IMG/VR virus record: IMGVR_UViG_3300043399_000587 | Span: 60,790 to 124,789 of that record | Strand: one strand, 5' to 3' | DNA: 64,000 nucleotides | From: a virus | Part shown: positions 2,795-53,872 of the stretch, piece after piece | Position numbering within the stretch: the stretch's first letter is position 1 | How the letters are laid out: each line of letters opens with the position of its first letter | Notes under the pieces: model-generated | Seen by the model: the letters and a program-made list of their open reading frames with translations, nothing else | Told to the model about the DNA's origin: nothing | The model's database searches: none | Made by a program: the position numbers and the translations under genes

Positions 2795-3424
2795 ATGAAG
2801 AATAAAACCGCAGACAATTTTTTTGACGATATTGACTTTGTAAGTATTATAAGCAACGTCAAGGGTATCATGACCAGTGATGGTTCTATGTCTACATTAT
2901 TGGATTTTGAGCGTGTGCTAGACGAAGCAGATTTATACGCTTTTAAGAATTGGATCTATGGGGAACTAGTTCAAGGTCCGGATTCAGGTAGATATTCAGT
3001 AACATGCACATTCATGTGGCCATATAAATTAATGCCTGATCCTAGTGGTGTGAAACGTCTAGCATCAATTGGATGTAGCATATCTTTTGCTAAAGGTAAA
3101 ATAAAAGTTCCCATTGAAGTTAAAAACTATGATGACTTTGTGCAAGGAACTAGATATCCTAAAGGTGTTGAGAAAAAAGTTTGGTTTGTACAGATTGAAG
3201 TGCCCAAGGCATTAATGAACGAAATCAAAGAAGGTTCTATCGATTTAGCTGATCAAACTATCGACTTAGATGATATTGAAACAGCATACGAAGAAGATTT
3301 AGATAAAGAAAATACTCAGCAATCTGAACAAGATAATCAACAAGGAGCAGGAATGGCTCCAATGGATATGAGTGCGGGTATGCCTGCACTGCCAGCAGCA
3401 CCGGGGGCGGCACCGCCGATGTAA
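2795..3424 (+). CDS. Hypothetical protein with acidic/Pro-rich tail
   Basis: 209-aa ORF; TAAATA 4 nt upstream. Confidence 0.8.
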   Translation: MKNKTADNFFDDIDFVSIISNVKGIMTSDGSMSTLLDFERVLDEADLYAFKNWIYGELVQGPDSGRYSVTCTFMWPYKLMPDPSGVKRLASIGCSISFAKGKIKVPIEVKNYDDFVQGTRYPKGVEKKVWFVQIEVPKALMNEIKEGSIDLADQTIDLDDIETAYEEDLDKENTQQSEQDNQQGAGMAPMDMSAGMPALPAAPGAAPPM

Positions 3425-3425
3425 T

Positions 3426-3965
3426 ATGAAAAAATTATACGAAGGTTTAGACTATCATGACATGGAGGGGCAAATAGAACCACGCGTGTCTGTTGACGAA
3501 TATTCTGCTAAAATGGGGAAAGATAAAGATATTGTAACACTAGCTTTTATTGTGAAATCTAAAGAAGCAGGAAATGATTTAGAAGAATGGTTTGAAAAGG
3601 GATATGACTATGTATTAGACGCTAGCTTAAGCGATGGAGAAGTAGTCTCTGGCAAATGGCTAGTATTCGTAGAATTAAGTCGCAGATCAACTGTACCAGA
3701 AAGAATTGTAGAACTTATAAATGACCTTAAAACTTTAACTAATTTAAAATTGTCAGAATGGACAGTTCAAGTGGAAGATGAAGATCATGAACCTGAAGAA
3801 CAAATACTTAAACAGGTTATCATATGCAATCCTAACGAATATAAAATGAAACGAGAACAAGAAGATGAACTAAACGAAATGCGCAGTATTGCTGGTTTAG
3901 AGGTTAAAAATCTGTTTGAAAAGGACAAAGAGCTAAAAGATTTCATTAGCAAAGCGGGATTATAA
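3426..3965 (+). CDS. Hypothetical protein, possibly head-associated
   Basis: MKKLYE start, ELNEMRSIAGL motif. Confidence 0.75.
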   Translation: MKKLYEGLDYHDMEGQIEPRVSVDEYSAKMGKDKDIVTLAFIVKSKEAGNDLEEWFEKGYDYVLDASLSDGEVVSGKWLVFVELSRRSTVPERIVELINDLKTLTNLKLSEWTVQVEDEDHEPEEQILKQVIICNPNEYKMKREQEDELNEMRSIAGLEVKNLFEKDKELKDFISKAGL

Positions 3966-3975
3966 GGGAGTAACA

Positions 3976-4578
3976 ATGGCTACAACAATATTACCTAAAA
4001 AAGCCGGACAAGAAAGGCCAATGGCAACAGATGACGAACAATACGCACAACTTGCAGAAGATCCAACAATACACCAGTTCCCGCAGGGAACTACGTATGA
4101 ATCCTCACCATTTAATGGGTCTGCAACATTTAGCCCACCTTCGTCAGGAAGATTCAATCCTACCGACAATTTTGATTCACCAGCATTTAACCAACAATCA
4201 ACATCAAATTTTGGAAACACCACAAATACAAATCAATCAAATGGAACAATACCGGTATTAACTGGTGCCGCCCCCACTAATGCTGCTAGTGGTGCAGATA
4301 TATTAGTAGGACATGATAAAGACAGTAATGACTGGATAAACAAAAAGTGGCGCCCGGCAATGGGTTGGAGTTACATGCTTACGTGTATTACTGATTTTGT
4401 CATTTTTCCAATATTGTGGTCTGTATTACAAGCAGTTAGTAAAGGGCAAGTTACAAGTCAATGGCAACCATTGACTTTGCAGGGAGCAGGATTATATCAC
4501 ATTGCTATGGGTGCTGTATTAGGTATCGCTGCATATGGTAGAACTAAGGAAAAAATAGAGTCGGCAACCAAGAATTAA
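3976..4578 (+). CDS. GTA-type 3TM holin-like protein with long low-complexity N-terminus
   Basis: WRPAMGW...TM...LGIAAYGRTKEK; AGGGAG RBS. Confidence 0.65.
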   Translation: MATTILPKKAGQERPMATDDEQYAQLAEDPTIHQFPQGTTYESSPFNGSATFSPPSSGRFNPTDNFDSPAFNQQSTSNFGNTTNTNQSNGTIPVLTGAAPTNAASGADILVGHDKDSNDWINKKWRPAMGWSYMLTCITDFVIFPILWSVLQAVSKGQVTSQWQPLTLQGAGLYHIAMGAVLGIAAYGRTKEKIESATKN

Positions 4579-9973: not shown

Positions 9974-10840
9974 ATGTCAGAAGATAACCAAGAAAAAACT
10001 GTTCCAGTGGAACAATTACAAGAGATTGCTGAACAACAGCAACAACAAGCACAACCTGGCCAGGTGCAAGTAAATGTAGATTTTCTAAGAACCACACGTG
10101 TTCACATAGCAATGCCCTGTTATGGTGGTATGCTAACTGAATCTACCTTTATGAGTTTTATCAAATGGGCTAATACAGCAAGACAACTAGGTATCGATTG
10201 GACGTTGGAAACAATGGTCAACGAAAGCTTGATTAGTAGGGCACGCAATACATTAACAGCTAAGTTTTTAGATATGCCCGATGCTACTCATTTGTTCTTT
10301 GTCGATGCTGATATTGGTTGGGAACCATGGCATTTATTGGTACTTATAAACCGTGATGTTGATGTTATCGGTGGACTTTATCCCATGAAGACTATGCCTA
10401 TTAAGTGGGTTGTTAACGGATTTGAAGGGGCAGAAGAAGGACCTGATGGATTACAAGAAGTAAGCAAAGCCGGTACAGGATTTTTGCTAATGAAAAAACA
10501 TGTCTTTCACAAATTGAACAGTCACCCTGCCGTGAAGCAGTATAAAAATGACATAGGACTTGATCCTAAATTTGACCAGTATTTGAAAACATATTTTGAC
10601 ACTGCAGTACGTCAAAATCGTTATTATTCAGAAGATTGGACCTTCTGTGAGAACTGGCGTGATCTAGGAGGAAAAATTTATGTTGATAAACGTGTTCTAC
10701 TACGTCACTCGGGAAGCTATGTATTCTGTATGGAGAATCAACAACATCTATTCAATACAATAGGACCCATGTACGTACAAGAAAGACGCAATCAAGGTTG
10801 CAAACTTCTTGACAAAGATGGCAACGAAGTAGCACAATAA
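9974..10840 (+). CDS. GT-A-like glycosyltransferase
   Basis: IAMPCYGG, SLISRARN, FVDADI (DxD), YSEDWTFC. Confidence 0.7.
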   Translation: MSEDNQEKTVPVEQLQEIAEQQQQQAQPGQVQVNVDFLRTTRVHIAMPCYGGMLTESTFMSFIKWANTARQLGIDWTLETMVNESLISRARNTLTAKFLDMPDATHLFFVDADIGWEPWHLLVLINRDVDVIGGLYPMKTMPIKWVVNGFEGAEEGPDGLQEVSKAGTGFLLMKKHVFHKLNSHPAVKQYKNDIGLDPKFDQYLKTYFDTAVRQNRYYSEDWTFCENWRDLGGKIYVDKRVLLRHSGSYVFCMENQQHLFNTIGPMYVQERRNQGCKLLDKDGNEVAQ

Positions 10841-10843
10841 ATC

Positions 10844-10864
10844 AGCCCCGCAAGGGGCTTTTTT
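10844..10864 (+). terminator. Rho-independent terminator
   Basis: AGCCCC-GCAA-GGGGCT plus T-run. Confidence 0.9.
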
Positions 10865-10878
10865 GTGATAAATAGATA

Positions 10879-12348
10879 ATGAACCTCAACGAGCTAGATA
10901 AATTTCGCCTAAGCGATGCATTAAAATTTCACGACGATTTAAACCCTAAGTTGTGGTTTAACAATCGTCTTCGACCTGAAGTAGCAAAACAACTCAAACG
11001 TATAGCAGAAGATTTTATTGAAGAATTAGGTGTTAATAGATTTGATGTGAAAGATTTAACTATTTCGGGGTCAAATGCTGCATATAGCTATACTCCACAT
11101 AGTGATTTAGATTTACATATTCTTATTGATATGGATTTATTGCCTAATAATGAAGTATACAGGGAATTATTCAATGCTAAAAAAATAATTTACAACGACA
11201 GTCACAACATAAAAATTCATGGTGTTCCTGTAGAATTATATGTACAAGATGTTAATGAACCTGTAATTAGTTTGGGCGAGTACAGTATATTACAAAACAA
11301 ATGGATTAAAGTTCCTAGTAAAAAGAAAGCCAACTTTGATCAAACTGCCACTAAAGCAAAGTACGACAAACTACATACATTGATCAAACACGCATTAAAG
11401 AGCAAAGATTTAAAAATTTTAAATAACGTCATCAACAAGATCAAACAGTATAGAAAAGCTGGATTAGATAAAGCAGGTGAGTTTGGTCCTGAAAATCTAG
11501 CGTATAAAATTTTACGTAATCAGGATTACATTACTAAACTGTATGATCTTCGGGATAAGTTGCATAGTGAAGAATTGACTATAGAAACAATGTACAAACA
11601 GCCGGGCAGTACTAAACTGTTAGACAAGCCTACACTGTCAGTTAGAGCATTAGCATTAAAGCACAATGTATCAGTTAAACACATTTTAGATCAATTAAAA
11701 CGTGGTATCAAAGTAGAAAATGAACATACCACATACGCACAAACTGCGCGTGAGATTGCATTAGACCATTTAGCAGAAGATCCCAACTACTACACTAAAT
11801 TAAAGAAAGCACAATTAGAAGAAGAAAAATATGATGAGTTACCTGAAAAGGTTTATCATGTAACGTTAGCAGATAATTTAGATAGTATAATGAGCAGAGG
11901 TTTAATACCTCAAATTGGTGATAGAGCTAGAAAAATCGAAGGCGAAAAGCCTGCAGTATATTGCTTCCCTGATAAGGTAAGTATGGAAGATGCTGTTATG
12001 AATTGGTTAGGTGATGAATACGATGAGGATGATCAACTAGCATTATTAGAAATTGATACTACAGGACTGAAAGGTCAAGTAACCGATGGTGCTCAGTACG
12101 AAGTAGCAATTACCGATAGTATCCCTGTAGATAATATACGTATATTATCCAGAGACTTAGCAACACCTATTACCGAATCGGCCTCAGGATATATTCCAAG
12201 CTACGCTGAACGCAATGATCCTAGATTTAAAACAGCACTAACAGTAGATATTAAACCTGACACAATGAAAAAGAATGCAAAAGCATTTGGTAATAAAATA
12301 AGTCGTGCAGGAATACCTCCAACATTGAGACCTAATGGGAAGTTCTGA
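10879..12348 (+). CDS. Multidomain protein: Pol-beta nucleotidyltransferase + DUF5661-like + ART-like domain
   Basis: GSNAAYSYTPHSDLDLH; EHT...EIALDHLAEDPNYYTKL; VYHVT...SIMSRGL...VYCF...YEVAI. Confidence 0.7.
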   Translation: MNLNELDKFRLSDALKFHDDLNPKLWFNNRLRPEVAKQLKRIAEDFIEELGVNRFDVKDLTISGSNAAYSYTPHSDLDLHILIDMDLLPNNEVYRELFNAKKIIYNDSHNIKIHGVPVELYVQDVNEPVISLGEYSILQNKWIKVPSKKKANFDQTATKAKYDKLHTLIKHALKSKDLKILNNVINKIKQYRKAGLDKAGEFGPENLAYKILRNQDYITKLYDLRDKLHSEELTIETMYKQPGSTKLLDKPTLSVRALALKHNVSVKHILDQLKRGIKVENEHTTYAQTAREIALDHLAEDPNYYTKLKKAQLEEEKYDELPEKVYHVTLADNLDSIMSRGLIPQIGDRARKIEGEKPAVYCFPDKVSMEDAVMNWLGDEYDEDDQLALLEIDTTGLKGQVTDGAQYEVAITDSIPVDNIRILSRDLATPITESASGYIPSYAERNDPRFKTALTVDIKPDTMKKNAKAFGNKISRAGIPPTLRPNGKF

Positions 12349-12393
12349 TAAACTAGTATTTTGATAAATACTATATTAATTCGGAATTATCCT

Positions 12394-13317
12394 ATGAAAA
12401 TCAATCAAATAATCATTAATGAAACTACGACCGCCGGCGCAGTAGCTACGGTTGCTAAACCAATGGGTGAAATGCAGACTAGAACCAAAGTTCGTGGTTT
12501 AGCGCCAGTAGATAAAGTCATGAAGGGTAAAGCTAAAAAACAAGGCCCATATGCAAATAGCTTAAGTGAAAGTAAAAATAAAGTTGAAGAGGCTAAACTA
12601 GATGAAGAAGATTTGATTGTTATTCCTGGTAAAGGGATAAAAAGAAAGACAGGTTTTATTCCGCATGGACAAAGTAGAGTTGATCACGAAGTTGAAATGG
12701 CTCGTAGTGATGTACTAGCAACTATGAAGAATGCCAAATCAATTTATCATATGTTAAAAGATCGTAGTGAAGAAGAAGGTATTGAAGGTTGGGTACAAGA
12801 AAAGTTAATCAAAGCAAATGACTATTTAAATTCTGTCAAAGAATATTATGATGAAAAGATGATGCGTGAAATGAATGGTGGTGTAATTGCTGCTGGTGGT
12901 GTAGGAGAAGGTGTGACGGAGAGCTACTTACCAGATGAATCAGAAATGAAAATTGTCTATAGAGCTAAAGCACCAAATGGCGATCAATGGGAAGTAAAAG
13001 AATATCAACGTGATTATCTAACATTCTTAAATGGTGAGCACATTAGTACGTATCACCATATGCCAGGTATGCTATACGGCGCCAAAGACCGCGCCATTGA
13101 AGTTGTTAGAAGAATGATAAAGATAGGTGTGGCGGAAGGCCAATTAAATGAAAAATTCAAAAGCCAACAACAAGCAAAATTAATGTATGCAGCAGCCGGA
13201 GATAAAGATGTTTCTAAAAAAACAGGTGTAAGTCAAAAAGTTGCCAAAGAATTCATTAAGAAAAGTCATGGACAAAAAGTCAGCAAATTACCTAAAAAAG
13301 TAAAAAAAGAGGGTTAA
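12394..13317 (+). CDS. Multidomain putative internal head protein
   Basis: MKINQIIINE leader; GVTE/GVAE linkers; TAAATA at 12365. Confidence 0.7.
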   Translation: MKINQIIINETTTAGAVATVAKPMGEMQTRTKVRGLAPVDKVMKGKAKKQGPYANSLSESKNKVEEAKLDEEDLIVIPGKGIKRKTGFIPHGQSRVDHEVEMARSDVLATMKNAKSIYHMLKDRSEEEGIEGWVQEKLIKANDYLNSVKEYYDEKMMREMNGGVIAAGGVGEGVTESYLPDESEMKIVYRAKAPNGDQWEVKEYQRDYLTFLNGEHISTYHHMPGMLYGAKDRAIEVVRRMIKIGVAEGQLNEKFKSQQQAKLMYAAAGDKDVSKKTGVSQKVAKEFIKKSHGQKVSKLPKKVKKEG

Positions 13318-13321
13318 TTAA

Positions 13322-14881
13322 ATGAGTAATATCTTACGTGGATTAAAAGAAGGATTTGCTGATGAATTTATGAAAATGGCCCGAGAAAAGGGCTATAATG
13401 TTCGTCAAGCAGGGACTATTGATCAAGAACGTGAACGAACACAACAAATGTTGGCTCAACGCGCTAAAGATAGAGAACAACAAGAATTACAATCTTCACA
13501 AGAAGATTTTAAAATACTTGACCAATTAAAAGCTGAATATGAAAAATTGTCTAAACGCTATCAAGCGTTGGGTGGTAGTAATTGGCAATATGCTGATCGT
13601 GAACAAAATCTTACTGACAATGAACGCGAGGCAAGAAACATAGAACCGCAGTTGCGTGCATTAGCAGCAAGAATTGCTAAAGCAGAAAAAACACAAGGTA
13701 GTGTTGCATTTGAGTCAAATAATTACACTGGTTCGGGTGCGATTTTAAAGGGTTTAATTGAATCTAAAAATTTGGATGAAGACCTACGTAAATGGTTTAA
13801 AGAAAAATGGGTAAGATTCGGTCCAGACGGTAAGATTCGCGGTGCATGTGCTAGGGGAGACGACAGTGAAGGTAAGCCAAAATGCTTGCCACAAAGCAAA
13901 GCACATAGTCTAGGCAAGAAGGGTCGTGCTAGTGCAGCAGCACGTAAGCGCAGAGAAGATCCTAACCCAGAACGTAGTGGCAAGGCTATTAATGTTAACA
14001 CTAAAAAAAAGTCAAATGAAGGAGTGACGGAAGGCTTTCTCGATAAGTTCATCAAGCCCAAAAAAGTCAAGCCCGAAATGATAATGAACATTAAAAAGGG
14101 AAATGGAGAACTGTATGTCGAAGTTTATATGGGTGAAGATTCAACATATTGGATAGCAAGATTTACATTTGATATGATCGGTGACACCTTAAAAGCCCAG
14201 GATATATCTGTGACAGATGAATATAGAGGTCGTGGAATTGCTAAATGGGTATATGATACACTAAAAAACAAAGGATATACTATCAACCGCAGCCCTTATC
14301 AAACAGATGACGGCAAGCATTTTTGGGATAAAAACAAAGGCGCAAATGCAAAAGTATGGGAACAAGGTGTGTCGGAAGAACAAATAAATGAATTAAAATG
14401 CTGGTCTGGATATACAAGAGTTCAAGGTGTTCCTGCAGGTGCTCCAGGTAGTTGCAAAAAGAAAACTAATGAGGAACATAATGAAAAATGCCCACATTGT
14501 GGCGGTCCTATGTTTAGTGAAATGTTGATGATGGAAAAGAAAGACGCTTGCTACTATAAAGTAAAGAGTCGTTATAAAGTTTGGCCTTCAGCATATGCCA
14601 GTGGTGCATTAGTTAAGTGTCGCAAAAAGGGTGCTAAGAATTGGGGCACAAAGAGTGAAAGTGTGGAAGAAGCAGCCAATCCAGCACAACAAGCAGCAAT
14701 TGCTATTGCCATGAAAAAGGCAGGCAAAAAACCAAAGCGCGAAAGTGCTATAATGAAAGGTCTCGTAGACGAAACATTGGGTACTCCTTACCCAGGAACA
14801 TACGAACAAGAAACTGCAACGATTAAGCGCAAGGGTCCAGAAAGAATCACAGCAATGACCTACGAATCAAAGAAGAAATAA
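13322..14881 (+). CDS. Multidomain putative internal head protein with GNAT and DUF5872-like domains
   Basis: LRKWFKEKWV; V.DEYRGRGIA...QTDDGKHFW (GNAT); KVWPSAYASG; CPHCG. Confidence 0.7.
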   Translation: MSNILRGLKEGFADEFMKMAREKGYNVRQAGTIDQERERTQQMLAQRAKDREQQELQSSQEDFKILDQLKAEYEKLSKRYQALGGSNWQYADREQNLTDNEREARNIEPQLRALAARIAKAEKTQGSVAFESNNYTGSGAILKGLIESKNLDEDLRKWFKEKWVRFGPDGKIRGACARGDDSEGKPKCLPQSKAHSLGKKGRASAAARKRREDPNPERSGKAINVNTKKKSNEGVTEGFLDKFIKPKKVKPEMIMNIKKGNGELYVEVYMGEDSTYWIARFTFDMIGDTLKAQDISVTDEYRGRGIAKWVYDTLKNKGYTINRSPYQTDDGKHFWDKNKGANAKVWEQGVSEEQINELKCWSGYTRVQGVPAGAPGSCKKKTNEEHNEKCPHCGGPMFSEMLMMEKKDACYYKVKSRYKVWPSAYASGALVKCRKKGAKNWGTKSESVEEAANPAQQAAIAIAMKKAGKKPKRESAIMKGLVDETLGTPYPGTYEQETATIKRKGPERITAMTYESKKK

Positions 14882-14890
14882 GGATATATA

Positions 14891-15334
14891 ATGTTAGCAG
14901 ACGCACTTAAAACACTATTAGCAACGAGTTATGCTTTTGTCATTAAAACACAAAACTTTCATTGGAATGTTGAAGGTCCTGACTTTCCACAATATCATGA
15001 ATTCTTGGGTAAGATATACGAAGAAGTATACGATAATGCAATAGACCAAACTGCTGAATTAATACGTCAGTTAGGTAGTTATACACCTGGCTCTATTACA
15101 CGATTTGCTGAACTAAGTCAAATACCAGATCAAACAAAAATCCCACGTGCTGAATTAATGATTGCAGAATTAGAACAGGATAATGCGAAATTATTGGCAA
15201 TGTGGAAAGAGTCCTTTCATATTGCTGAAGAAGCAGATGAACAAGGTATAGCTGATTTTATTGCTAGTAGAATTGATGCACATGGAAAACATGGATGGAT
15301 GCTACGCAGCATACTTAACAAAAGTCGTGCATAA
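14891..15334 (+). CDS. dps: Dps/ferritin-like protein
   Basis: NFHWNVEGPDFPQYH, D..AE, H.KH.WML. Confidence 0.9.
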   Translation: MLADALKTLLATSYAFVIKTQNFHWNVEGPDFPQYHEFLGKIYEEVYDNAIDQTAELIRQLGSYTPGSITRFAELSQIPDQTKIPRAELMIAELEQDNAKLLAMWKESFHIAEEADEQGIADFIASRIDAHGKHGWMLRSILNKSRA

Positions 15335-15344
15335 AGGATAATTT

Positions 15345-16007
15345 ATGAAGATAGTTGAGTTATTGAACGAAGCATACGTAGATCCTGAAATAGATACTAT
15401 TTTGAAAAAAAAGGGCTATCAATTTTTAGGCAAAGGAACGGATCAGTATGTGTATGCAGAGCCCAATACAGGTTTAGTATTGAAAATATTTGGCACTTCC
15501 AAAGGAACCAGCGGTAGTGCATCTGATTTAACCAATGCACAAAAAAGCTTCAAGACATTCTATGACGCAATTAAAGCGGATCCCGATAATGAGTTTCTCC
15601 CTAACATATTTGGGTACGCTCCTTTTATGTTTAAAGGTAAACCATATTTACAAATACGCATGGAGAGATTGTTGCCATTTACTGGACCAGACGTAGATGA
15701 GTGGAATTATGTATTAGCTGATTTTGCAACTGAGGCAGAAGATGCTACTTATAATTCCGGAAAAGAATTTGTAAACTCATTAGAGAAAAAACTCAATAAA
15801 GAAAATGACAGACATATACAACAGTTAGCAATACTTCTAGGAAGAAAAGGGTTAGAAAAGTTATTTGATACTATTCTCATGTTAAATCGTATTGCTAAGA
15901 AAAATAATTATGTATTAGATTTACATGATGGTAATTTTATGCTAGGAAGTGATGGAACACCTGTCATTAGTGATCCTTTCTTTATGGGTTGGGGAAAAAG
16001 TACATAA
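15345..16007 (+). CDS. Protein kinase-like fold protein
   Basis: LGKG, VLKIF, MERL, DLHDGNFM, ISDPF. Confidence 0.8.
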   Translation: MKIVELLNEAYVDPEIDTILKKKGYQFLGKGTDQYVYAEPNTGLVLKIFGTSKGTSGSASDLTNAQKSFKTFYDAIKADPDNEFLPNIFGYAPFMFKGKPYLQIRMERLLPFTGPDVDEWNYVLADFATEAEDATYNSGKEFVNSLEKKLNKENDRHIQQLAILLGRKGLEKLFDTILMLNRIAKKNNYVLDLHDGNFMLGSDGTPVISDPFFMGWGKST

Positions 16008-16915
16008 TGAGAGCCCTTGAATTTATTACCGAAAATAAAAATATTACCATAGAAAATCTTTATGGCGGTAATTATCCTGAACTTGATGAGATGGCATTAT
16101 CAACGTACAAAACGTTTGGGGATTTTACCAAGCCCGGTCCATTTACCGGTGTTGACAAACGACTTGTACCACACCCAAAAAATATACAAAAGGCAACTAA
16201 GTTCTTTGAACAAACACCATACGACTTTAGACTTTTCTTTGCTAATATCAGTGGACTAGGCAAATATCGTGAAACTGGGCCCGTCAGACCCATGACGTTG
16301 CGACAAATGTTCAATAAAGAACAAGCTGATGAAATTATCAATGGCAGTGAAGATGCTATTACTGTAATCTATGTAAGCAATGTAGGTGATCGTAAAGTTA
16401 TGATGACACCATGGATTATGGCACACCGTTTTGGACATGCAATACAGGCTGGTGCAAGAAAGGATGGTGCATGGAATGCGTGGACTGAAGTAGAACAACA
16501 TTTCTTCAGTCAAATAAATCAAATACTAGCTGAATACTATGGTTTAACAAGAGCAACTGATTTGTATTCTGACCGTTCAACTAATTGGAATGTCAGCAGA
16601 GAATATAGTGCGTTATTCAATGCTATCGGTACTCAACGTAGTAGCAGAGAACGTCAAATTAATAGACCATATGAATTCATGTACGAAATGTTTGCTCAAT
16701 ATTTGAAGACTGGAACAGTGACACTAAATCCACTACCAAATTCAATACCTTATGGTAAAATGGTATTTGGTCGTCCAAGTCAATACTTAACACTAAAACC
16801 AGAAGTTAGAAATGACCCAAACACAAAGTATATTACTGATACGTTAGGCAACGATATGGCTATATTGTTCGGTGATGTTTTATCTAGTGCTGTCGGCAAT
16901 ATTTATGTGATGTAA
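16007..16915 (+). CDS. Hypothetical head-targeted protein with zincin-like motif variant
   Basis: MRALEFITE leader; AHRFGHA and later EMFAQY. Confidence 0.65.
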   Translation: MRALEFITENKNITIENLYGGNYPELDEMALSTYKTFGDFTKPGPFTGVDKRLVPHPKNIQKATKFFEQTPYDFRLFFANISGLGKYRETGPVRPMTLRQMFNKEQADEIINGSEDAITVIYVSNVGDRKVMMTPWIMAHRFGHAIQAGARKDGAWNAWTEVEQHFFSQINQILAEYYGLTRATDLYSDRSTNWNVSREYSALFNAIGTQRSSRERQINRPYEFMYEMFAQYLKTGTVTLNPLPNSIPYGKMVFGRPSQYLTLKPEVRNDPNTKYITDTLGNDMAILFGDVLSSAVGNIYVM

Positions 16916-16919
16916 TACC

Positions 16920-17534
16920 ATGTTAATAAAAGAAATAACCGATCCGCATGAACTGAATAAATTAGACGTTGAACCCGATGATCTAAGACATAATTTGTAT
17001 AAACCTGCTCTACGGCGATATAGTTGGGATTCCAAACAAATTTCTAATTTATTACATCGAATGTATAAAAAACAACCATTTGATCCGGCAAATTTAAATT
17101 ATTTTAAAGACGATATACTGATGTTAGATGATATTATGTTTAACCATCTAATCAAACAAAACATAACGTTATATCATGGACTTAAAGAAAACCCAATACG
17201 TGTTTGGAAAAAATATAATGTGCCTGCAAATAAGTCAGTGCGTGTGCATTTTCCCGGTTTTATTAGTACAACTGATGACTTCGATGTTACACGTTATTTT
17301 GCTGAGCCTGATCTTGATCAGCGTAATATTCTAGAAATTGATGTCCCTGCTGGGACTCCTGGTCTCAGTATAAAAAATCTCAGTACAATGCCTAAAGAAA
17401 ATGAAATTTTGTTGTCTAGAGGTTTGGATATTGAAATTCAACCAAACCCCACGCAAGTTCGTACTTTTTTAGGGTCGATAGTGCATGTGTGGAATGCTAA
17501 AGTCGTAGGAGTTAATCCTAGTGAAATACATTGA
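16920..17534 (+). CDS. VIP2/Alt-like ADP-ribosyltransferase
   Basis: LYHG, GFISTT, LEIDVPAG, ENEILL; H in place of the usual R. Confidence 0.8.
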   Translation: MLIKEITDPHELNKLDVEPDDLRHNLYKPALRRYSWDSKQISNLLHRMYKKQPFDPANLNYFKDDILMLDDIMFNHLIKQNITLYHGLKENPIRVWKKYNVPANKSVRVHFPGFISTTDDFDVTRYFAEPDLDQRNILEIDVPAGTPGLSIKNLSTMPKENEILLSRGLDIEIQPNPTQVRTFLGSIVHVWNAKVVGVNPSEIH

Positions 17535-17555
17535 AGACGTAGAGTAAATACTATA

Positions 17556-18674
17556 ATGAGAGCAACAGAATTCATAACAGAAGCAATATTAGATCCAAGT
17601 GGATGGGGAAACACACCTGACGGTACAGATATTGATTATTTTGGTCTGCGTGTTCAAATGCGTCCTAGTACTTTCTTAAAACTAGCATTACCACTTACAT
17701 CTTCAGTAACAAATCCTGAAGTTGCAAAACACATGAAAACAGGTGGCAAGATTGCATATCCAATGCTTGGTATTGAAATACCCGATGAGTGGCGTAAAGG
17801 AGACTTTAGTCAACCCGCTAAAGTAGTTGACCATGAAGGTAGAAATAGAATGAAAACTTGGATTGAATTAAAAGGTGATGATCCAATACAGGTTAATATA
17901 AAACCACGTGGCGGTCTGATAAGACGTAGAGATTTAACTGACGAATATATTAAAGCTATGAGTACTGGTCTTATTAGTCAACGTGGGAATTTAGTTCAAA
18001 ATCCGTTTGATGCAAGTACAACACTTGAAGAGGCAGAAATAAGAACACCAGCTAGTAAAGAAATTAGAACTTCTTTAAGAAGAAAAGGATATAAATTATT
18101 AGGAAGCGGAGTTGATGCCACAGTATGGGCTAAAAAAACAGGACCTGTAATTAAAATAATTATGCCTGAGGATCATAAAGGATCAGGAACAGCAGGTGAT
18201 ACCTTTATGAAATTTTATGAATTTTGTAGGGAAAATCAAAGTATAGATAATTTACCTAAATTTTCTAATAATGAAGTAGAATTGTTTACCGCAGACAATA
18301 AAGAATATGTAATGGTCACAATGGAAAGACTGTCTTCAATTCCATCTGGTAGTTTTCAAGAAGCAATGGTGTGGATACTAAGCGAGTTAGCAACAGAAAC
18401 TATGTCATGGACTAAAGCAATTACAGTTATAAAAGACCCAAATACGTGGTTATTATTCGATGATGGAATGGACCCAAAAGAAGTAATTAACACGTTTAAT
18501 AGTTTAGATAAAACATCACTATTAGAATATGAAATTCTATATAAACTCATGACATTGTTGTATCATAGAGGCAAAATAAATAAAATTGGTTGGGACTTGC
18601 ACACTGAAAATGCAATGATGCGAGGAAATACAATTGTCATAACCGATCCATGGTTTTCTATGGAAATACAATAA
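17556..18674 (+). CDS. Two-domain protein: ParB-like N-domain + kinase-like domain
   Basis: MRATEFITE leader; DHEGRNR; LLGSG, VIKI, MERL, DLHTEN, ITDPW. Confidence 0.7.
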   Translation: MRATEFITEAILDPSGWGNTPDGTDIDYFGLRVQMRPSTFLKLALPLTSSVTNPEVAKHMKTGGKIAYPMLGIEIPDEWRKGDFSQPAKVVDHEGRNRMKTWIELKGDDPIQVNIKPRGGLIRRRDLTDEYIKAMSTGLISQRGNLVQNPFDASTTLEEAEIRTPASKEIRTSLRRKGYKLLGSGVDATVWAKKTGPVIKIIMPEDHKGSGTAGDTFMKFYEFCRENQSIDNLPKFSNNEVELFTADNKEYVMVTMERLSSIPSGSFQEAMVWILSELATETMSWTKAITVIKDPNTWLLFDDGMDPKEVINTFNSLDKTSLLEYEILYKLMTLLYHRGKINKIGWDLHTENAMMRGNTIVITDPWFSMEIQ

Positions 18675-18723
18675 TGAAACATTTTTAACATCGTGAAAAA
18701 ATGAGTTATGTATTAAATAGCTT

Positions 18724-18817
18724 AAGAACACCCTTAGGACCCGTTTGAGTACGGAGGTGTAGCCGAGAACCCGGGCTTGAACAACAAATTCGCTACTTGT
18801 TGTTCTTAACAGGGTTC
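18724..18817 (+). ncRNA. Candidate structured RNA
   Basis: GC-rich intergenic stretch after TAAATA (18714); stems ACACC/GGTGT, CCGT/ACGG, GAACCC/GGGTTC, GAACAACAA/TTGTTGTTC. Confidence 0.6.
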
Positions 18818-18839
18818 ACTTTACATTTATCTTCGTGTC

Positions 18840-19274
18840 ATGAAAAAAATAATAACAGCAATATTAGTATTGATATCATTTGCTGCTTTTGCACAAAAAA
18901 AGCCTCATGGTGTTACATATGATGCACAAATATTAAGAGTTAGTGACGGTGATACAGTAGTCATATCAGCACCCTTTTTACCAAAACCATTAAAACCAGA
19001 ACTAGCTGTTAGAATATACGGCATTGATACTCCTGAAAAAGGATTCAGAGCTAAATGCTCAAGGGAAGATGCTAGAGGACAAGCCGCGAGTAAATTCACA
19101 AAAGATTTAGTAGCATCCAGCCAAAAGACTCAAGTGACATTATATGATTGGGATAAATTTGGTGGACGAGTTTTAGGCGACATTATTTTAAATGGTAAAA
19201 GCCTACGTGAAATGCTTATTGCTAACGGATATGCTAGAGCATATTTTGGAGAAGCAAAACAAAGTTGGTGTTAA
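18840..19274 (+). CDS. Thermonuclease (SNase-like) with signal peptide
   Basis: DGDTV, RIYGIDTPE, DKFGGRVLG. Confidence 0.9.
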   Translation: MKKIITAILVLISFAAFAQKKPHGVTYDAQILRVSDGDTVVISAPFLPKPLKPELAVRIYGIDTPEKGFRAKCSREDARGQAASKFTKDLVASSQKTQVTLYDWDKFGGRVLGDIILNGKSLREMLIANGYARAYFGEAKQSWC

Positions 19275-19290
19275 TAGATAAATAAATCAT

Positions 19291-19866
19291 ATGAAAGCAA
19301 ATGATTTTGTTAATGAAACTGCTGCTATTGAACTAGCTAAAAAATTGCCTAGTTTAGAAAAGCATGACTATAATACTATTGATAAACTCATGCAGAAAAT
19401 TGCCAAAAAACACAGAATTACAGGTAAAATTTTGCATGACTTGTTTATCAAAAAGTATCGTTCTACTCCGGATAATTGGATCAAAAATAAATTGGATGAA
19501 ACAGATGTTCAATCCGATTTACAACAGGAAGTTGATAAGTTCGCAGATTGGGCTAGCAAAAGACTACATTTAAAAACAAGACCAGTTATAGAACTAAGTC
19601 AAGATACCGAAGAAGCACAAACAGGACATCATACAGGTAGACACACTGAAGGTGACAACAAAGTTTGGGTCTATGTTAAAAATAGAAACTTAGTTGATAT
19701 ATTGCGCACTGTATTTCATGAATTGGTTCACGTAAGACAAGGTGAACTAAGTATGATTAAGCCTGGTTCAAGCTATCCCGGTAGTCCAATAGAAGCCATG
19801 GCTGACATGCTGGCTGGAAAATATATCAAAATTTACGGCGAAAAAAATAGGCATATTTTTCAATGA
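19291..19866 (+). CDS. Zincin-like metallopeptidase with head-targeting-like leader
   Basis: MKANDFVNE; LRTVFHELVH..Q; downstream E..A. Confidence 0.7.
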   Translation: MKANDFVNETAAIELAKKLPSLEKHDYNTIDKLMQKIAKKHRITGKILHDLFIKKYRSTPDNWIKNKLDETDVQSDLQQEVDKFADWASKRLHLKTRPVIELSQDTEEAQTGHHTGRHTEGDNKVWVYVKNRNLVDILRTVFHELVHVRQGELSMIKPGSSYPGSPIEAMADMLAGKYIKIYGEKNRHIFQ

Positions 19867-39451: not shown

Positions 39452-39670
39452 ATGTTTTCAGTTATTATCAAAAACAAAGATAGTAATGAGATAAGCCGAC
39501 TTGTCAAAGAACTAAAAGATAGTGGTTTGACAGTCGGCGTTGATTTTGATTTTATGTATTCTACCGGTAAGTATGATTGGGAAATGCAAACTGAAATACC
39601 CAGACAAACTGAATTTGTATTTTACAATGAACAGGCAGGTTTAATTTTTTCTTTGAAGTACTTAGATTAG
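39452..39670 (+). CDS. Hypothetical protein
   Basis: 72-aa ORF. Confidence 0.65.
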   Translation: MFSVIIKNKDSNEISRLVKELKDSGLTVGVDFDFMYSTGKYDWEMQTEIPRQTEFVFYNEQAGLIFSLKYLD

Positions 39671-41061
39671 TGCTTCAATAGTAATGTACTTAGAACCCCT
39701 GCACTCTTAGCTGTAATATCTGGTTCACCGGGAGTAATAATGACATTGTATTGAACTGGTGTCTTTTCTTTTCCCCCATTGGTCTTAGCATCCCATTCAT
39801 CATAACTTAATATACTGCTAGGACTTAACTTGTATTCCTGTGCCAATCGATTTTTTAATTCAGGTAACTTACTAGGTATCACTTGCCATTGGCCTTCTGG
39901 ACCCTTAACTAAGTTCTTCTTTTCATCCTTAATTAATAAATCATAGAATAAGTCACTAGGAACAATTCTACTATTTTTTGTTGTTTCTAATTCAGGATCT
40001 TGTGCTTTAATTTTTTTCTCTTGGCTAGTACTTGCACCCTCACTCCAATTGATCATGAAGTTATCTGGTTTTTTACCTAATGCAACGTCAGCAACTTTCG
40101 TATATGCATAGAAATCAACGTTTGGTAATTCACTTGCTAACTTAAATGCCATTGCAGCATATTCTGGACTAAAGAAATCACCAGCATCATGCCAACGAAT
40201 ACTTACCTTGTAGCCGCCCTTCTTACCTTTTGCTTCTTCTTTAGTAATCTCTGCTTTTAATTGATTGAAGAACCCGTCTGGGTCATTTAACAAATATGTA
40301 AGAATCCTACCGTCGCTTAGCCATGGTCCTTGGAACTGCACCTTACCACCTTTCATAGCAAAGCAATCTACTTTACAACTGCCGGCGCCCGGACAAGTGT
40401 TAACGATAATTAATTCATCCGTTTGTTCGTCAAGTGCAATACCAACTAATGCAGCAAAACCAATATTAAAGAATTGTTCTAATGCACCATCACTATGCTT
40501 CATCTTCTCATTCTTTTTGAGAAGTGCTTTTGGTCTTTCTGCTAGTGCTGCCTTAATGGCATCAGTATTATATTTTTTACCTTCTTCGTTATAGTAACCA
40601 ATTACGCTACTGCGGTGAATATATGGTAGTTTGTATTTGTCAGTTTTTTGTTTTTGTTGTGTGCGAATGCGATCTAAATAATCGGTTAACTCTTTATCAC
40701 CGATTGGACGAGTAGGAGCAGCAAGTTTGGTTGCCTCCGCTACACCTTCTTTTTGATTAAGTTCATCGGCCTTTTTCTGAGCAGCATCTTTACTAATGAA
40801 ATCAGTAGCACCTAACTTATTAGCCCATACCCTACGTTTTTGATATCCCGTAATAACATAGTAACGCCCTGTAGCCACAGATTGTTCTACACGCCAATAA
40901 GTAGATTCACCTCTTTTGGCCTCATCAATTTCCTTTTCATCTTCAGGTTCTTCACCGGCATCACTCTTAGCAACGAATTGCTGAGGTGTCATAATTTGTA
41001 TACCTTCAGGGGCTCCAGGTAGTTTTGGTTCGGCGCCTTCCATTAATTCTATGTATTTCAT
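39667..41061 (-). CDS. Gp88-like protein with head-targeting-like N-terminal region
   Basis: TCPGAGSCKVDCFA, IRWHDAGDFF, YAYTK; MKYIELME leader, GVAE linker; TAAATA on minus strand at 41115-41120. Confidence 0.7.
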   Translation of the reverse strand: MKYIELMEGAEPKLPGAPEGIQIMTPQQFVAKSDAGEEPEDEKEIDEAKRGESTYWRVEQSVATGRYYVITGYQKRRVWANKLGATDFISKDAAQKKADELNQKEGVAEATKLAAPTRPIGDKELTDYLDRIRTQQKQKTDKYKLPYIHRSSVIGYYNEEGKKYNTDAIKAALAERPKALLKKNEKMKHSDGALEQFFNIGFAALVGIALDEQTDELIIVNTCPGAGSCKVDCFAMKGGKVQFQGPWLSDGRILTYLLNDPDGFFNQLKAEITKEEAKGKKGGYKVSIRWHDAGDFFSPEYAAMAFKLASELPNVDFYAYTKVADVALGKKPDNFMINWSEGASTSQEKKIKAQDPELETTKNSRIVPSDLFYDLLIKDEKKNLVKGPEGQWQVIPSKLPELKNRLAQEYKLSPSSILSYDEWDAKTNGGKEKTPVQYNVIITPGEPDITAKSAGVLSTLLLKH

Positions 41062-47986: not shown

Positions 47987-48041
47987 TTTGACAAAAATGT
48001 AGTTATCTACTACAATAGACATATTTTAACCATTGTTAGAT

Positions 48042-48355
48042 ATGTCTAAAAGTCAAAGACAAAATATAACCGCGGTGATCTTGATCGTCGCGGTCGTGTT
48101 TTGAGTATTGGTCAAAACAGCTATATCAAAACTCATCCTATTCAGGCTAAACATGCCGAAAAAGTGGGTGAACCCTACAAACAATTTCTTCATGCAGAAA
48201 TTCATGCTATTGTTCGGTGTCCCGACATTAAAAAGGCACATCGTATTTTTGTTAGTAGGTTTGATCGTGATGGCAATCCTACACTAGCAGCACCTTGTCC
48301 TATCTGCATGAGTGCTATTCTTGCCACTGGCATTAAGATTATTGAACATACTTAA
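48042..48355 (+). pseudogene. Zn-dependent cytidine/dCMP deaminase-like gene with apparent 1-nt frameshift near 48081
   Basis: HAE and PCPIC motifs; MSKSQRQNITAVI and DRRGRVLSIG are in different frames. Confidence 0.65.
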
Positions 48356-48360
48356 AAATC

Positions 48361-48624
48361 ATGAAATTCTACAAAATCAGAAAAAAGAGTAATCCAAGTC
48401 TTTATCGTTTGGCTGGGACTCGTCCATCATGGAACAAGACAGGCAAGACCTGGGATACAATTGGCAAACTTCGTGCAATGATTACCAATGTAATTAATAG
48501 TAATTATTATAACGAAGATTTAGGTGATTGGGAAATTGTTGAATATAATGTAACCGAAGCAGATTCTAAACCTGTACATGAAGTCATAAGCCATAAAAAT
48601 CTGTTGACGATGTTGACACGATAA
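48361..48624 (+). CDS. Hypothetical protein
   Basis: 87-aa ORF. Confidence 0.65.
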   Translation: MKFYKIRKKSNPSLYRLAGTRPSWNKTGKTWDTIGKLRAMITNVINSNYYNEDLGDWEIVEYNVTEADSKPVHEVISHKNLLTMLTR

Positions 48625-48681
48625 TTTGACACAAAATAGACATTGTGTTATACTGTATCTTACGCTGAGTAAAACAGTTCG

Positions 48682-48975
48682 ATGAAGAAAATCATAGTCA
48701 CGACTTGGGCTGACCATGGCATCGAGCCAGATTTTAATTCTGGACGATGGGTGCAGTTGGGTAGTCCTACACTGTTGAATTTCTTCCTTACTGGATTGCC
48801 AGGCGGTAAGTTCTATGTAACCAAAAACTTTCCCTATATTCAATATCGTCCTTCCAAGACTCCTTTTAAGAATCATAAATCCACGATGGTTGATAAAAAT
48901 CAACTAGAATGGCCACGTGGTTTTGGTGTGGATGGTTTTGTCAAGGGACTTTTGGGACAGAGAAAAATTAAATAA
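48682..48975 (+). CDS. Hypothetical early protein
   Basis: Follows promoter 48626. Confidence 0.6.
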   Translation: MKKIIVTTWADHGIEPDFNSGRWVQLGSPTLLNFFLTGLPGGKFYVTKNFPYIQYRPSKTPFKNHKSTMVDKNQLEWPRGFGVDGFVKGLLGQRKIK

Positions 48976-49019
48976 TTGGTTGACACAAAATAGCCACAGT
49001 GCGCAAGACGGAGTACGAA

Positions 49020-49181
49020 ATGACCATTTTTCGACACAATAACGGTAAACTGTATACTTTGGAACTCGTAAGGCGACGTATGTATACTGAGGCACCGCAA
49101 CTGGTTGCTACGCCTTATCGTCACAACGAACTTGTCAAACGTCCTGTGATGAAAGACTTTATTGCCGTAGCGACCCGGTGA
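49020..49181 (+). CDS. Hypothetical early protein
   Basis: GGAG RBS in repeated leader. Confidence 0.6.
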   Translation: MTIFRHNNGKLYTLELVRRRMYTEAPQLVATPYRHNELVKRPVMKDFIAVATR

Positions 49182-49241
49182 TTTGACATTAAATCGGGCT
49201 AGTGCTATACTGTATTTCTAGTGAGCAAGACGGAGTACGTA

Positions 49242-49457
49242 ATGACGATTGAAACTGTTCTCTACGGCAAGCGGGCTATCGTTCGGAATGAGGAAGAACT
49301 CAAGCTGTTCAAGCGTAAGGAAATTTTGGTCGCTGCTGCAAGGACTCTGTATGCCTATCAACCTGGCAGTCCTGTGCTCCGTGATGTTATGGGCAAACTC
49401 AGTCGGCTCAATCGTAAGATTGAATCTAAGGGCTTTTATGTTCAGTATTTGGAATAA
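49242..49457 (+). CDS. Hypothetical early protein
   Basis: Promoter 49183; GGAG RBS. Confidence 0.7.
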   Translation: MTIETVLYGKRAIVRNEEELKLFKRKEILVAAARTLYAYQPGSPVLRDVMGKLSRLNRKIESKGFYVQYLE

Positions 49458-49541
49458 ATCCAAATTTGACAAATAATCCCAAATCAGTTATACTGTATTT
49501 CTAAATTAGTGCTACAAGCATAACGCAACAAGGAGTTTGAA

Positions 49542-49703
49542 ATGAAGAAGGTTTTTGTTTCTATCCGCTACAACGGCCGCAAGTACTCGTACCTGGTTGA
49601 CGCCCGGTTCGTTGAAGGCCGGGCTGTGGTGTCCCAAACGGTCATCGACGGTCTGCTGGACAAGATCGGCGTGCGCCGCGGCGACACTTACTCGATCGGT
49701 TGA
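49542..49703 (+). CDS. Hypothetical early protein (not in ORF track)
   Basis: MKKVFVSIRYNGRKY...; AAGGAG RBS; GC-rich codons. Confidence 0.7.
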   Translation: MKKVFVSIRYNGRKYSYLVDARFVEGRAVVSQTVIDGLLDKIGVRRGDTYSIG

Positions 49704-49730
49704 CAGGGTCGGACAGCAAGGAGCAAGACA

Positions 49731-49985
49731 ATGCGACTGGTGATCAAATATACTGCGGGCGACGGTTGTTCTTGGTCGTGTGAGGATGTGTTACCCGTTG
49801 AATACGAATCCGCAGAACAACTCTACGTGGACTTTGAGGCAGCAGCTCGGGCCGCGCGTGCGGCAAACGTATACGCATTTGTGGTAGCTAATCGTGAGTT
49901 TGACACTGACTACTTCTTCTATGGCGCTGGTACTTACAACCCACCCGAGATTCTTACCGTAGATGAATGGTTCCAACAGGCTTGA
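49731..49985 (+). CDS. Hypothetical early protein
   Basis: AAGGAG RBS. Confidence 0.7.
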   Translation: MRLVIKYTAGDGCSWSCEDVLPVEYESAEQLYVDFEAAARAARAANVYAFVVANREFDTDYFFYGAGTYNPPEILTVDEWFQQA

Positions 49986-50036
49986 CAGGATCTCCAAAAG
50001 ATTCTACAATACTGACATAGCAACAAGGAGTTTGAA

Positions 50037-50240
50037 ATGAAGGTAATTGATATCATCGTCGCCGGTGCCCTCATTCTGTTCGTCGTGTCGGCTCTGCTGA
50101 GTCTGCCCGTGATGCTGCTGTGGGACTGGCTCATGCCCACGATCTTCGGACTGAAAAAGATCACCTGGTTTCAAGCCTGGGGTCTGATGTTCCTCTGCGG
50201 TCTCCTGTTCAAGAGCCACACCACTGTGAATAAGAACTGA
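50037..50240 (+). CDS. Small membrane protein
   Basis: LWDWLMPTIFGL..ITWFQAWG. Confidence 0.75.
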   Translation: MKVIDIIVAGALILFVVSALLSLPVMLLWDWLMPTIFGLKKITWFQAWGLMFLCGLLFKSHTTVNKN

Positions 50241-50250
50241 GAGGACAAAA

Positions 50251-50406
50251 ATGATGACGATTCTCGGTGCGATCCCCTACGCGATGGTAGGCGGCATTCT
50301 CGCTACGATGGGTTATAATCTCACGGACTTGGAATGGCAAGTTTTTGCCATTTTCGGCTGTATGTGGCTCAGTGAGCTTATCGCGTGGGTCAAGCATTCT
50401 CGTTGA
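50251..50406 (+). CDS. Small membrane protein (not in ORF track)
   Basis: GAGGA RBS; hydrophobic 51 aa. Confidence 0.55.
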   Translation: MMTILGAIPYAMVGGILATMGYNLTDLEWQVFAIFGCMWLSELIAWVKHSR

Positions 50407-50414
50407 GGTATATC

Positions 50415-50633
50415 ATGTATCGTAATAAGTTTCAAAAAGACTTTGATTTCACCTCTCGGGTTATCAAAATCATGTTCGGTGTCGTAACCACTTTTATTGC
50501 GATTATCTGGATTGCAGTGATCGCATTCTGGATCTTTGCAGGCACTATTGCCGTCAAGGCTGCTGATCAAATCGAACAGCGTGGTCTCAAGGATGTGATT
50601 GAACAAATCTGGTTCGGTCCTAATAACAAGTGA
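50415..50633 (+). CDS. Single-TM hypothetical protein
   Basis: GAGGT RBS. Confidence 0.65.
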   Translation: MYRNKFQKDFDFTSRVIKIMFGVVTTFIAIIWIAVIAFWIFAGTIAVKAADQIEQRGLKDVIEQIWFGPNNK

Positions 50634-50657
50634 ATGTGATTGCGTTAAGGAAATAAA

Positions 50658-50768
50658 ATGTCTGAACGTAAAATGGCTACTGTTCGTCGCATTGACGAAA
50701 TTCGTCCTATCAAGGATGCTGACGCTACTGAAGCCGCTGTAGTAGGGGGATGGGTCGTTGTTATGTAA
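50658..50768 (+). pseudogene. Orphaned 5' fragment of RNA ligase gene
   Basis: MSERKMATVRRIDEIRPIKDADATEAAVVGGWVVVM*, aligns with N-terminus of 51565 ligase; AAGGA RBS. Confidence 0.8.
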
Positions 50769-50807
50769 AAACACCATTATGTATAAATACATAGAGGAGA
50801 AATCTCT

Positions 50808-51524: not shown

Positions 51525-51564
51525 ATTACAATACATCAACTGAACAAATATTTGGAATATTCTT

Positions 51565-52596: not shown

Positions 52597-52649
52597 AGAA
52601 TAATCAGACTAGAGTTAGAATTTAAACTCATTAATTTAAGGAGTAAATC

Positions 52650-52829
52650 ATGCGTGAATTGGTGTTGCTAAAACTTCAAACGTTTATTCAAGATAGTGGT
52701 GGATTTGGAATTCCTCGCTTTTTTGATTGTGATGAGGATGAGTTCATTACTGATGCCAAGGAACTTGAGTCCATGTCTGATCAAGAACTCCTAGAAGTTT
52801 TTGAAAGTTGTGTGGGATTTAACGGATAA
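52650..52829 (+). CDS. Small acidic protein (not in ORF track)
   Basis: AAGGAG RBS; 59 aa. Confidence 0.65.
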   Translation: MRELVLLKLQTFIQDSGGFGIPRFFDCDEDEFITDAKELESMSDQELLEVFESCVGFNG

Positions 52830-52858
52830 AACTATCGTAAACTAACTGGAGGTTTAAC

Positions 52859-53182: not shown

Positions 53183-53185
53183 ATT

Positions 53186-53404: not shown

Positions 53405-53417
53405 AGGAAATAATACA

Positions 53418-53600: not shown

Positions 53601-53648
53601 TATGGTATTTGTTATACTGTATTCATGTTGAACGCAACGGAGAGCAAG

Positions 53649-53816: not shown

Positions 53817-53872
53817 CAGTATTTTCAGCCTGTGCTATACTGCATTCAAGTTAGAAAAAAGGAGCAAACGAG

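Follow-up and report, generated by a model that had tools for sequence, protein, structure and literature searches.

Why should a string of 12 nucleotides (nt) be spelled almost alike at the edges of unrelated protein domains, in several genes of one virus? The question is raised by a 64,000-nt stretch of viral DNA, hereafter the window, which comprises bases 60790-124789 of the 124,789-bp contig IMGVR_UViG_3300043399_000587 (36% complete according to CheckV). The string encodes G-V-[TAS]-E, and its copies, referred to here as joints J1 to J5, divide gene A, gene B and a GP88-like gene into modules (Table 1). We conclude, from comparison of related sequences, that the motif is very probably a joint at which modules are swapped at the level of DNA. 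On balance we also take it to be a dual-purpose in-frame linker, swap joint and protease site in one, of a large clade of uncultured giant T4-type phages.

An initial annotation, made from the letters of the window, had described five copies of the motif and read them as brackets around in-frame domain cassettes. A scan with the pattern GGWGTRNCGGAR, counting both strands, recovers all five where they had been placed. Shuffled windows contained 0.08 matches on average and none of 100 shuffles reached five, although this test is weak by itself because the pattern was composed after the copies were known. The full contig holds nine copies, against none for a reversed control pattern, and each of the four beyond the window is spelled GGTGTGGCGGAA. 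All five window copies, and indeed all nine in the contig, lie in frame 0 of long open reading frames (ORFs) and are read as [KNI][EQI]-G-V-[ATS]-E-[GAES]. Allowing up to three mismatches to the 16-mer consensus, we found no further and no antisense copy in the window. The codons are unusual for this genome. Across 151 crudely called genes of the contig, GTG accounts for 11.6% of Val codons, GCG for 7.2% of Ala, ACG for 9.6% of Thr and TCG for 4.9% of Ser. At the GV[ATS]E peptides of the contig, by comparison, NCG is used in 9 of 12 cases and GTG likewise in 9 of 12, versus 5 of 33 and 4 of 33 where V[ATS]E lacks the preceding Gly. The described use of NCG and GTG against the codon bias is therefore real.

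Beyond this contig the motif proved to have a clade-wide canonical spelling, xAA GGT GTG GCG GAA GG. At least 120 IMG/VR stretches contain the 17-mer CAAGGTGTGGCGGAAGG without a mismatch; in the 120 loci listed, 155 copies have sufficient flanks, and the neighbouring peptides of the first 100 mostly show no relationship to one another. Because these loci had been selected by the DNA string itself, we recounted on 109 loci chosen because their proteins are similar to those of genes A and B. Here GGTGTGGCGGAA occupies 91 of 132 unique GVAE sites (69%), where codon use predicts about 0.5%; at the four silent third positions in turn, 128 of the 132 sites have T, 110 G, 115 G and 119 A. In an information profile the core, xAA GGT GTG GCG GAA G(G/A), stands out sharply from flanks at background level. 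Of the 41 matches to GGNGTNGCNGAR in five large contigs totalling 1.41 Mb, 18 are canonical (a reversed control gave 9 matches), and each contig has its canonical joints grouped at one to three places. The reading frame is respected: the GVAE frame is open at 332 of 339 unique canonical 12-mers (57 and 12 for the other two frames), and 151 of 162 spacings between adjacent canonical copies are multiples of three, with a median unit of 81 amino acids (aa). Four of the five window copies are one or two bases away from the canonical 12-mer, whereas all four joints of L211, a relative about 90% identical, are spelled canonically. Most joints of the window are thus decayed forms of the clade-wide string. 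A single change at the first position turns GCG into ACG or TCG, so the NCG that the copies share is inherited from GCG, with no separate selection for NCG. Of the nucleotide-level selection originally proposed, conservation of DNA beyond the needs of the peptide has held up, and selection for NCG as such has not.

Evidence for exchange comes from the places at which homology between loci begins and ends. Against L211, the window aligns as DNA in four blocks (10001-12177, 12181-12920, 13782-14033 and 14483-16089). Homology ends at 12920, the end of J1, and at 14033, one base past J3; it restarts straight after the fourth joint of L211, and unrelated in-frame modules lie between the blocks. The module order is B1b-joint-B3a'-joint-B3b in L211 and B1b-joint-GNAT-joint-B3a-B3b in the window, the GNAT-like module being absent from L211. 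That same module marks a second case: window positions 14013-14382, J3 through J4, match positions 4167-4537 of L134 at 97.3% identity over 371 nt. The patch sits in a different protein there, and the remaining L134 locus is either unrelated or 64-84% identical, matching elsewhere in the window. A third case comes from Logan contigs of public runs. A contig of run X1, the probable source sample, jumps from 13995 to 14364, skipping 368 nt and inserting 23 other letters, a net loss of 345 nt, which is the exact J3-to-J4 distance (joint plus GNAT-like module). Since this contig is about 87% identical to the window, it represents a related strain lacking the GNAT unit and no excision product. An apparent junction in run X4 ('12920 to 13120') was discarded as a deletion: it has only 21 letters on one side, and we read it as a contig with a canonical joint that was placed on the second copy. 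Uncovered parts of the window in runs X3-X5, and runs X8-X24 with their small shares, did not enter the evidence.

Individual joints behave in the same way across relatives. The left flank of J1 is common to L135 and L220 while the right flanks are unrelated; the right flank of J2 (A3) is common to L220 at 94%, and that of J4 (B3a) to L227 at 85%, each with an unrelated left flank. The left module of J3, B1b, is followed by eight different right modules (in L039, L044, L135, L149, L160, L170, L217 and L222). Over 401 contexts, pairs of loci are homologous on both sides of the joint in 7 cases, on the left only in 124 and on the right only in 97, a break in 221 of 228. At a control point 96 nt upstream the corresponding numbers are 102, 0 and 6 (a break in 6 of 108), and 96 nt downstream they are 74, 16 and 3 (19 of 93). 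Swap evidence was found at 69 of 121 canonical sites and at 45-57% of sites within two mismatches of canonical. Presence and absence of domains with breakpoints at the motif, which the initial annotation had predicted for orthologues, is thus seen in L211, L134 and run X1 as well as in the flank pairs of the clade.

Table 1. Positions of the joints, genes and modules discussed in the text (numbering of the window).
Feature	Position	Strand	Description
Joint J1	12910..12921	+	GGTGTGACGGAG; G-V-T-E; 2 nt off canonical 12-mer; separates A1 / A2
Joint J2	13126..13137	+	GGTGTGGCGGAA; G-V-A-E; canonical; separates A2 / A3
Joint J3	14021..14032	+	GGAGTGACGGAA; G-V-T-E; 2 nt off canonical; separates B1b / GNAT-like module
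Joint J4	14366..14377	+	GGTGTGTCGGAA; G-V-S-E; 1 nt off canonical; separates GNAT-like module / B3a
Joint J5	40735..40746	-	GGTGTAGCGGAG; G-V-A-E; 2 nt off canonical; separates variable N-terminal part / GP88 core
Gene A	12361..13317	+	ORF start TTG 12361; likely start ATG 12394; leader MKINQIIINE
Module A1	to 12909	+	precedes J1
Module A2	12922-13125	+	68 aa; joint-bounded
Module A3	13138-13314	+	follows J2
Gene B	13322..14881	+	leader MSNILRGLKE
Module B1a	13322-13741	+	
Module B1b	13742-14020	+	
Module B2	14033-14365	+	GNAT-like module, 111 aa
Module B3a	14378-14521	+	
Module B3b	14522-14671	+	
Module B3c	14672-14878	+	
GP88-like gene	39667..41061	-	Pfam PF17338, E 7.4e-25; leader-like start MKYIELME

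What does the peptide contribute? According to the excerpts of the source papers used here and below, T4 gp21 cuts after L/I-X-E and frees the internal proteins of T4 from their capsid-targeting leaders, 10 aa in length (PMC9026906, PMC3012670); cleavage occurs at A-X-E in SPN3US and at S/A-X-E in phiKZ (PMC5694885, PMC9026906). The V-A-E of the joint, followed by G, would fit the L/I-x-E specificity of prohead proteases of the gp21 type. A gene for such a protease (Peptidase_S77, PF03420) was found in five of eight large related contigs (G001, G003, G006, G007 and G008), and not in G002, G004 or the window's own, incomplete contig. In G003 it adjoins a gp23-type capsid gene, whose product starts MTQALLEG...DALLEG. 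Moreover, the joint-bearing genes sit among genes with M-[KR]-x-x-[EDQ]-[FLI]-[ILV]-x-E leaders, which resemble the capsid-targeting sequences of T4. In the gene cluster at 12394-19866 these include, besides the leaders of genes A and B, MKIVELLNE, MRALEFITE, MRATEFITE and MKANDFVNE, and the start of the GP88-like protein (41061, minus strand) resembles them. A loose regular expression for such leaders matches 31 of 151 genes compared with 10.8% of internal Met positions, a resemblance in sequence only. We incline to the view that the joint is also a protease site in head-packaged polyproteins. Genes A and B and the GP88-like gene would then encode polyproteins that are packaged in the head and cut into small independent cargo proteins, with the 68-aa A2 and the 111-aa GNAT-like module as candidate cassettes; it is plausible that the modules are injected cargo, as predicted.

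The GP88-like gene illustrates how the joint may relate to a broader signal. Its match to PF17338 (88.6 bits against a gathering cut-off of 24.4) covers residues 182-349, and the protein consists of a conserved N-terminus of about 45 aa, one variable module, J5 and the conserved core (40734-39670). J5 lies exactly between the variable N-terminal part and the core, as the claim of a single copy at a domain edge had it. Among 60 unique relatives the variable region ranges from 0 to about 450 aa of modules; it holds B1b and B3b in L258 and B3a in L251. The triplet before the core (ATKLPA) is always [VLIM]-x-E, in 54 of the 54 directly aligned relatives and, offset by two residues, in the other 6. 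It is followed by Ala and preceded by unrelated sequence, and it is GVAE in only about 10 of the 60. The joint therefore behaves like one spelling of a general hydrophobic-x-Glu boundary signal.

We turn now to how modules might be joined and how the spelling might be kept. The initial annotation had postulated a recombination or insertion system and a recombinase occurring alongside the motif. Modules are indeed gained, lost and replaced in frame at the motif, but a dedicated system did not emerge: neither tyrosine (PF00589) nor serine (PF00239) recombinases were found in any of five contigs, namely our own and four 95-100% complete relatives carrying 2-5 canonical joints each. A RecA/UvsX-type gene is present in all five (in our own contig at G000:C1:3079-3840, outside the window; PF00154, E 4.5e-17). 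This combination favours short-homology recombination over a dedicated cassette system, and short-homology recombination by general machinery, with the spelling kept by copying, is the explanation we favour. The 15-18-nt string would serve as a microhomology patch at which general phage recombination joins unrelated coding modules. Its in-frame position would allow modules to be exchanged, inserted or deleted from joint to joint without loss of the reading frame. The canonical spelling would persist through transmission advantage or concerted evolution and not through ordinary purifying selection, since only near-canonical joints could be copied to new contexts or converted by other joints. 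Immobile joints would drift, as four of the five in this window may have done.

Several points weigh against this account of the joint. All of the exchange evidence is comparative and comes from metagenome assemblies, and 12-18 nt is short for RecA-type recombination. The low share of swap evidence at sites with at least three DNA mismatches, 7 of 52 cases (13%; Fisher p = 5e-8), speaks in favour of the swap joint, but this class includes chance GxxE peptides that are possibly no linkers at all. Three of six true-joint pairs whose flanks are 89-100% identical differ at silent joint positions, and over nine pairs, three of which are not true joints, synonymous codon differences number 9 of 36 in the joints versus 39 of 326 in the flanks. 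With respect to packaging, our own contig has no match to a protease or a capsid gene, and G002 (342,865 bp, 99% complete, four canonical joints) has none to PF03420 or PF07068. The head genes of G002 may be too diverged for the models, or it may have a different head module. Classical purifying selection on orthologous joints was considered and set aside, there being no sign of it in the small sample of nine pairs sharing both flanks. That orthologous joints are no better conserved than their flanks argues against simple purifying selection and fits only a reading in which joints are copied and then decay. In the pairs L067/L109, L143/L145 and L222/L225, with flanks 96-100% identical, the silent differences within the joint are GTG/GTC, GCG/GCA, GGT/GGC and GTG/GTA. 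Differences of this kind between near-identical pairs would be expected if joints were hot spots of conversion.

The most durable alternative to general recombination is a dedicated site-specific system, in which a phage recombinase or nuclease recognises the joint, whether in the manner of an integron or by gene conversion of the homing-endonuclease type. The core is sharply delimited and invariant over about 15 nt, the breakpoints in L211 and L134 are exact, and the silent differences in near-identical pairs could be repair tracts. Set against these features is the lack of PF00589 and PF00239 matches in our own contig and the four near-complete relatives, in a screen that covered those two families, and we consider such a system distinctly unlikely. 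Somewhat less doubtful, though still speculative, is a broader proposal in which the joint acts as an 'att site' for cassettes that encode capsid-delivered proteins and are inserted in frame. The string of about 15 nt would be protease cut site and recombination address at once. A drive-like advantage would keep it uniform throughout this clade of giant freshwater phages, perhaps with the help of a dedicated nuclease that cuts the joint and forces gene conversion during co-infection. If so, any phage of the clade could plug the effector module of another into its injected payload with the frame unbroken.

A function at the level of RNA, such as a translational pause of the Shine-Dalgarno type or a binding site for a protein or small RNA between domains, would account for the locked silent positions, and AAGG and GGTG do resemble parts of a Shine-Dalgarno sequence. 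However, in pairing with the 3′ tail of 16S rRNA the canonical string ranks only 697th among its 1,024 synonymous spellings (-7.2 kcal/mol, where the mean is -8.2), no better than most, and the pause was rejected on that ground. Nor does the window contain an antisense or extra copy, and an RNA function would leave the breaks in homology at the joint unexplained. We therefore hold this explanation to be quite improbable. There is still less to be said for the view that GV[ATS]E is merely a conserved linker or cleavage peptide whose DNA identity reflects incidental codon use. Every copy is in frame, and [VLIM]-x-E boundaries occur without the canonical string too. Yet the codons are rare ones, a single 12-mer prevails far above expectation at GVAE sites, and the boundary itself, [VLIM]-x-E with any P2 residue, demands far less than the DNA string provides. 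Peptide constraint alone is, to our minds, excluded by the codon counts. An equally slim chance attaches to the mosaics being chimeric metagenome assemblies across a shared repeat, for although the relatives are all assembled contigs and the extended joint nears small k-mer sizes, 98% of copies keep an open frame, 93% of spacings are divisible by three, identical junctions turn up in contigs of many samples and in Logan contigs of public runs, and control points within modules seldom break.

The modules themselves vary in how much can be said about them. The insert of about 70 aa that the initial annotation saw bracketed in gene A corresponds to A2, which sits between J1 and J2. A2, a putative mobile module, has no relatives in the 109 related loci or in IMG/VR. 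A3 matches PHROGs families annotated as 'virion structural protein' (E 6.5e-6) and recurs in unrelated proteins of about 900 aa behind [LVM]-x-E (GKLEE, GKVQE and KPMRE). In gene B, B1b and B3b are found in both orders among relatives. Stretches resembling B1b, B3a and B3b are fused, with no GVAE joint, in a cyanophage protein labelled 'structural protein T4 GC0119' (L322 538-2127, Synechococcus phage S-P4). DNA and protein searches of a phage collection for cultured relatives returned only cyanophage proteins with parts like B1b, B3a or B3b, and no joints. Since they occur fused and joint-free in a protein of a cultured cyanophage, these three modules are older and more widespread than the joint.

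The domain said to be bracketed in gene B is likewise where it was placed: B2 sits between J3 and J4. AlphaFold2 (AF2) predicts a compact GNAT-like fold with a predicted local distance difference test (pLDDT) score of 79.4, and the ends adjoining the joints are predicted to be disordered (pLDDT below 50). The Foldseek rows from the PDB, listed to rank 50, are all acyl- or acetyltransferases of the GNAT type with TM about 0.55, the best E value being only 2.8e-3; the match to Pfam Acetyltransf_7 (18 bits) falls under the 27-bit cut-off. At 111 aa, B2 is shorter than typical GNATs. Its string Y-R-G-R-G-I-A, which we take to be like motif A, is kept in 12 relatives; motif A of GNATs, R/Q-x-x-G-x-G/A, serves acetyl-CoA binding. 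Relatives of B2 either follow a joint or form genes of their own with MRA[STN]EFI[TN]EE leaders, ending I-[TN]-E. The L134 protein with the near-identical GNAT-like module (3296-4546) has the leader MRANEFTLNE, and its modules are bracketed by variant G-L-A-E joints, GGTTTGGCGGAA, one base off canonical.

A few further observations concern the surroundings of these genes. L211 shows a module indel of another kind, located at an I-x-E boundary: there the homologue of the nucleotidyltransferase/DUF5661 gene (10879-12348) contains an in-frame extra module of 516 bp (3279-3794 of L211) at window position 12177-12181. It lies between ...PITE/S and ...RIGE/S, flanked by a 6-nt direct repeat, with no canonical joint. 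The G+C fraction of the window climbs from about 0.34-0.38 to 0.41-0.43 in its last quarter (48001-60000). ARAGORN found no tRNA within the window, and Rfam gave no credible match at 18600-18900, the place of a candidate structured RNA.

How does the joint compare with known systems? The internal proteins of T4 (IPI, IPII, IPIII and Alt) are small, diverse and dispensable cargo with a leader ending in L/I-x-E and are released by the prohead protease (PMC9026906, PMC3012670). The genes described here resemble them in their leaders (MKINQIIINE and MKIVELLNE, for instance) and in that each module boundary has V-A-E or [VLIM]-x-E. Whereas in T4 these are separate genes with their own leaders, here unrelated modules share one ORF in which the site is repeated internally with a fixed DNA spelling, cleavage and packaging being predicted. 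Cleavage after Glu within short motifs, frequently at more than one site per protein, also occurs in the head and ejection proteins of phiKZ, 201phi2-1 and SPN3US. The propeptides that are cut off there are discarded, and the excerpts available to us describe neither a fixed DNA spelling nor module exchange (PMC5694885, PMC9026906).

At the level of DNA, one parallel is with the promoter-early stem-loops (PeSLs) of T4-type phages, short conserved cassettes in hyperplastic regions whose recombination inserts, deletes and replaces modules and forms mini-circles (PMC2839356). PeSLs, however, are intergenic, combine a sigma-70-like promoter with a stem-loop terminator and move whole genes, while the joint is coding and in frame, contains neither promoter nor terminator and moves domains within genes. 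A PeSL-type intergenic location does not apply to it (all 9 contig copies and 332 of the 339 copies in relatives are in open frames), and the 18-mer joint is without self-structure (-0.1 kcal/mol). In T-even tail-fibre adhesins, exchanges occur at conserved motifs (PMC3157838). Those glycine-rich motifs of gp37/gp38 swap loops in one domain of one gene family, in contrast to a universal linker with locked silent positions between unrelated folds in several unrelated genes and hundreds of contigs. The gene cassettes of integrons also resemble the present case, in that exchangeable cassettes with unrelated functions are flanked by one short shared site. Integrons need the IntI tyrosine recombinase and structured attC sites and move whole genes. 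Here, by contrast, the site is a translated linker and none of the five contigs screened has a tyrosine or serine recombinase. In short, the joint differs from the T4 capsid-targeting sequence and gp21 system, from PeSLs and from adhesin motifs in that a single translated linker, universal and locked in its codons, connects unrelated folds in several genes. Literature searches by peptide and by topic, with supplementary tables outside their scope, found no account of it, only the processing work on T4, phiKZ and SPN3US.

Injected phage proteins such as IPI and Alt of T4 are front-line weapons against host defences, and how this arsenal is renewed is poorly understood. The joint is a clear case of silent sites in coding sequence that are conserved for a reason other than translation. 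If our reading is correct, these phages would string small domains together in polyproteins through a single protease-cuttable linker whose fixed DNA spelling permits the in-frame exchange of single domains. The role of conserved motifs in the modular evolution of T4-type phages would then extend to a clade-wide 'plug' at the level of the domain. Everything between two joints would enter a catalogue of candidate cargo or anti-defence modules, and the arrangement would suggest a design, taken from nature, for loading phage heads with foreign proteins.

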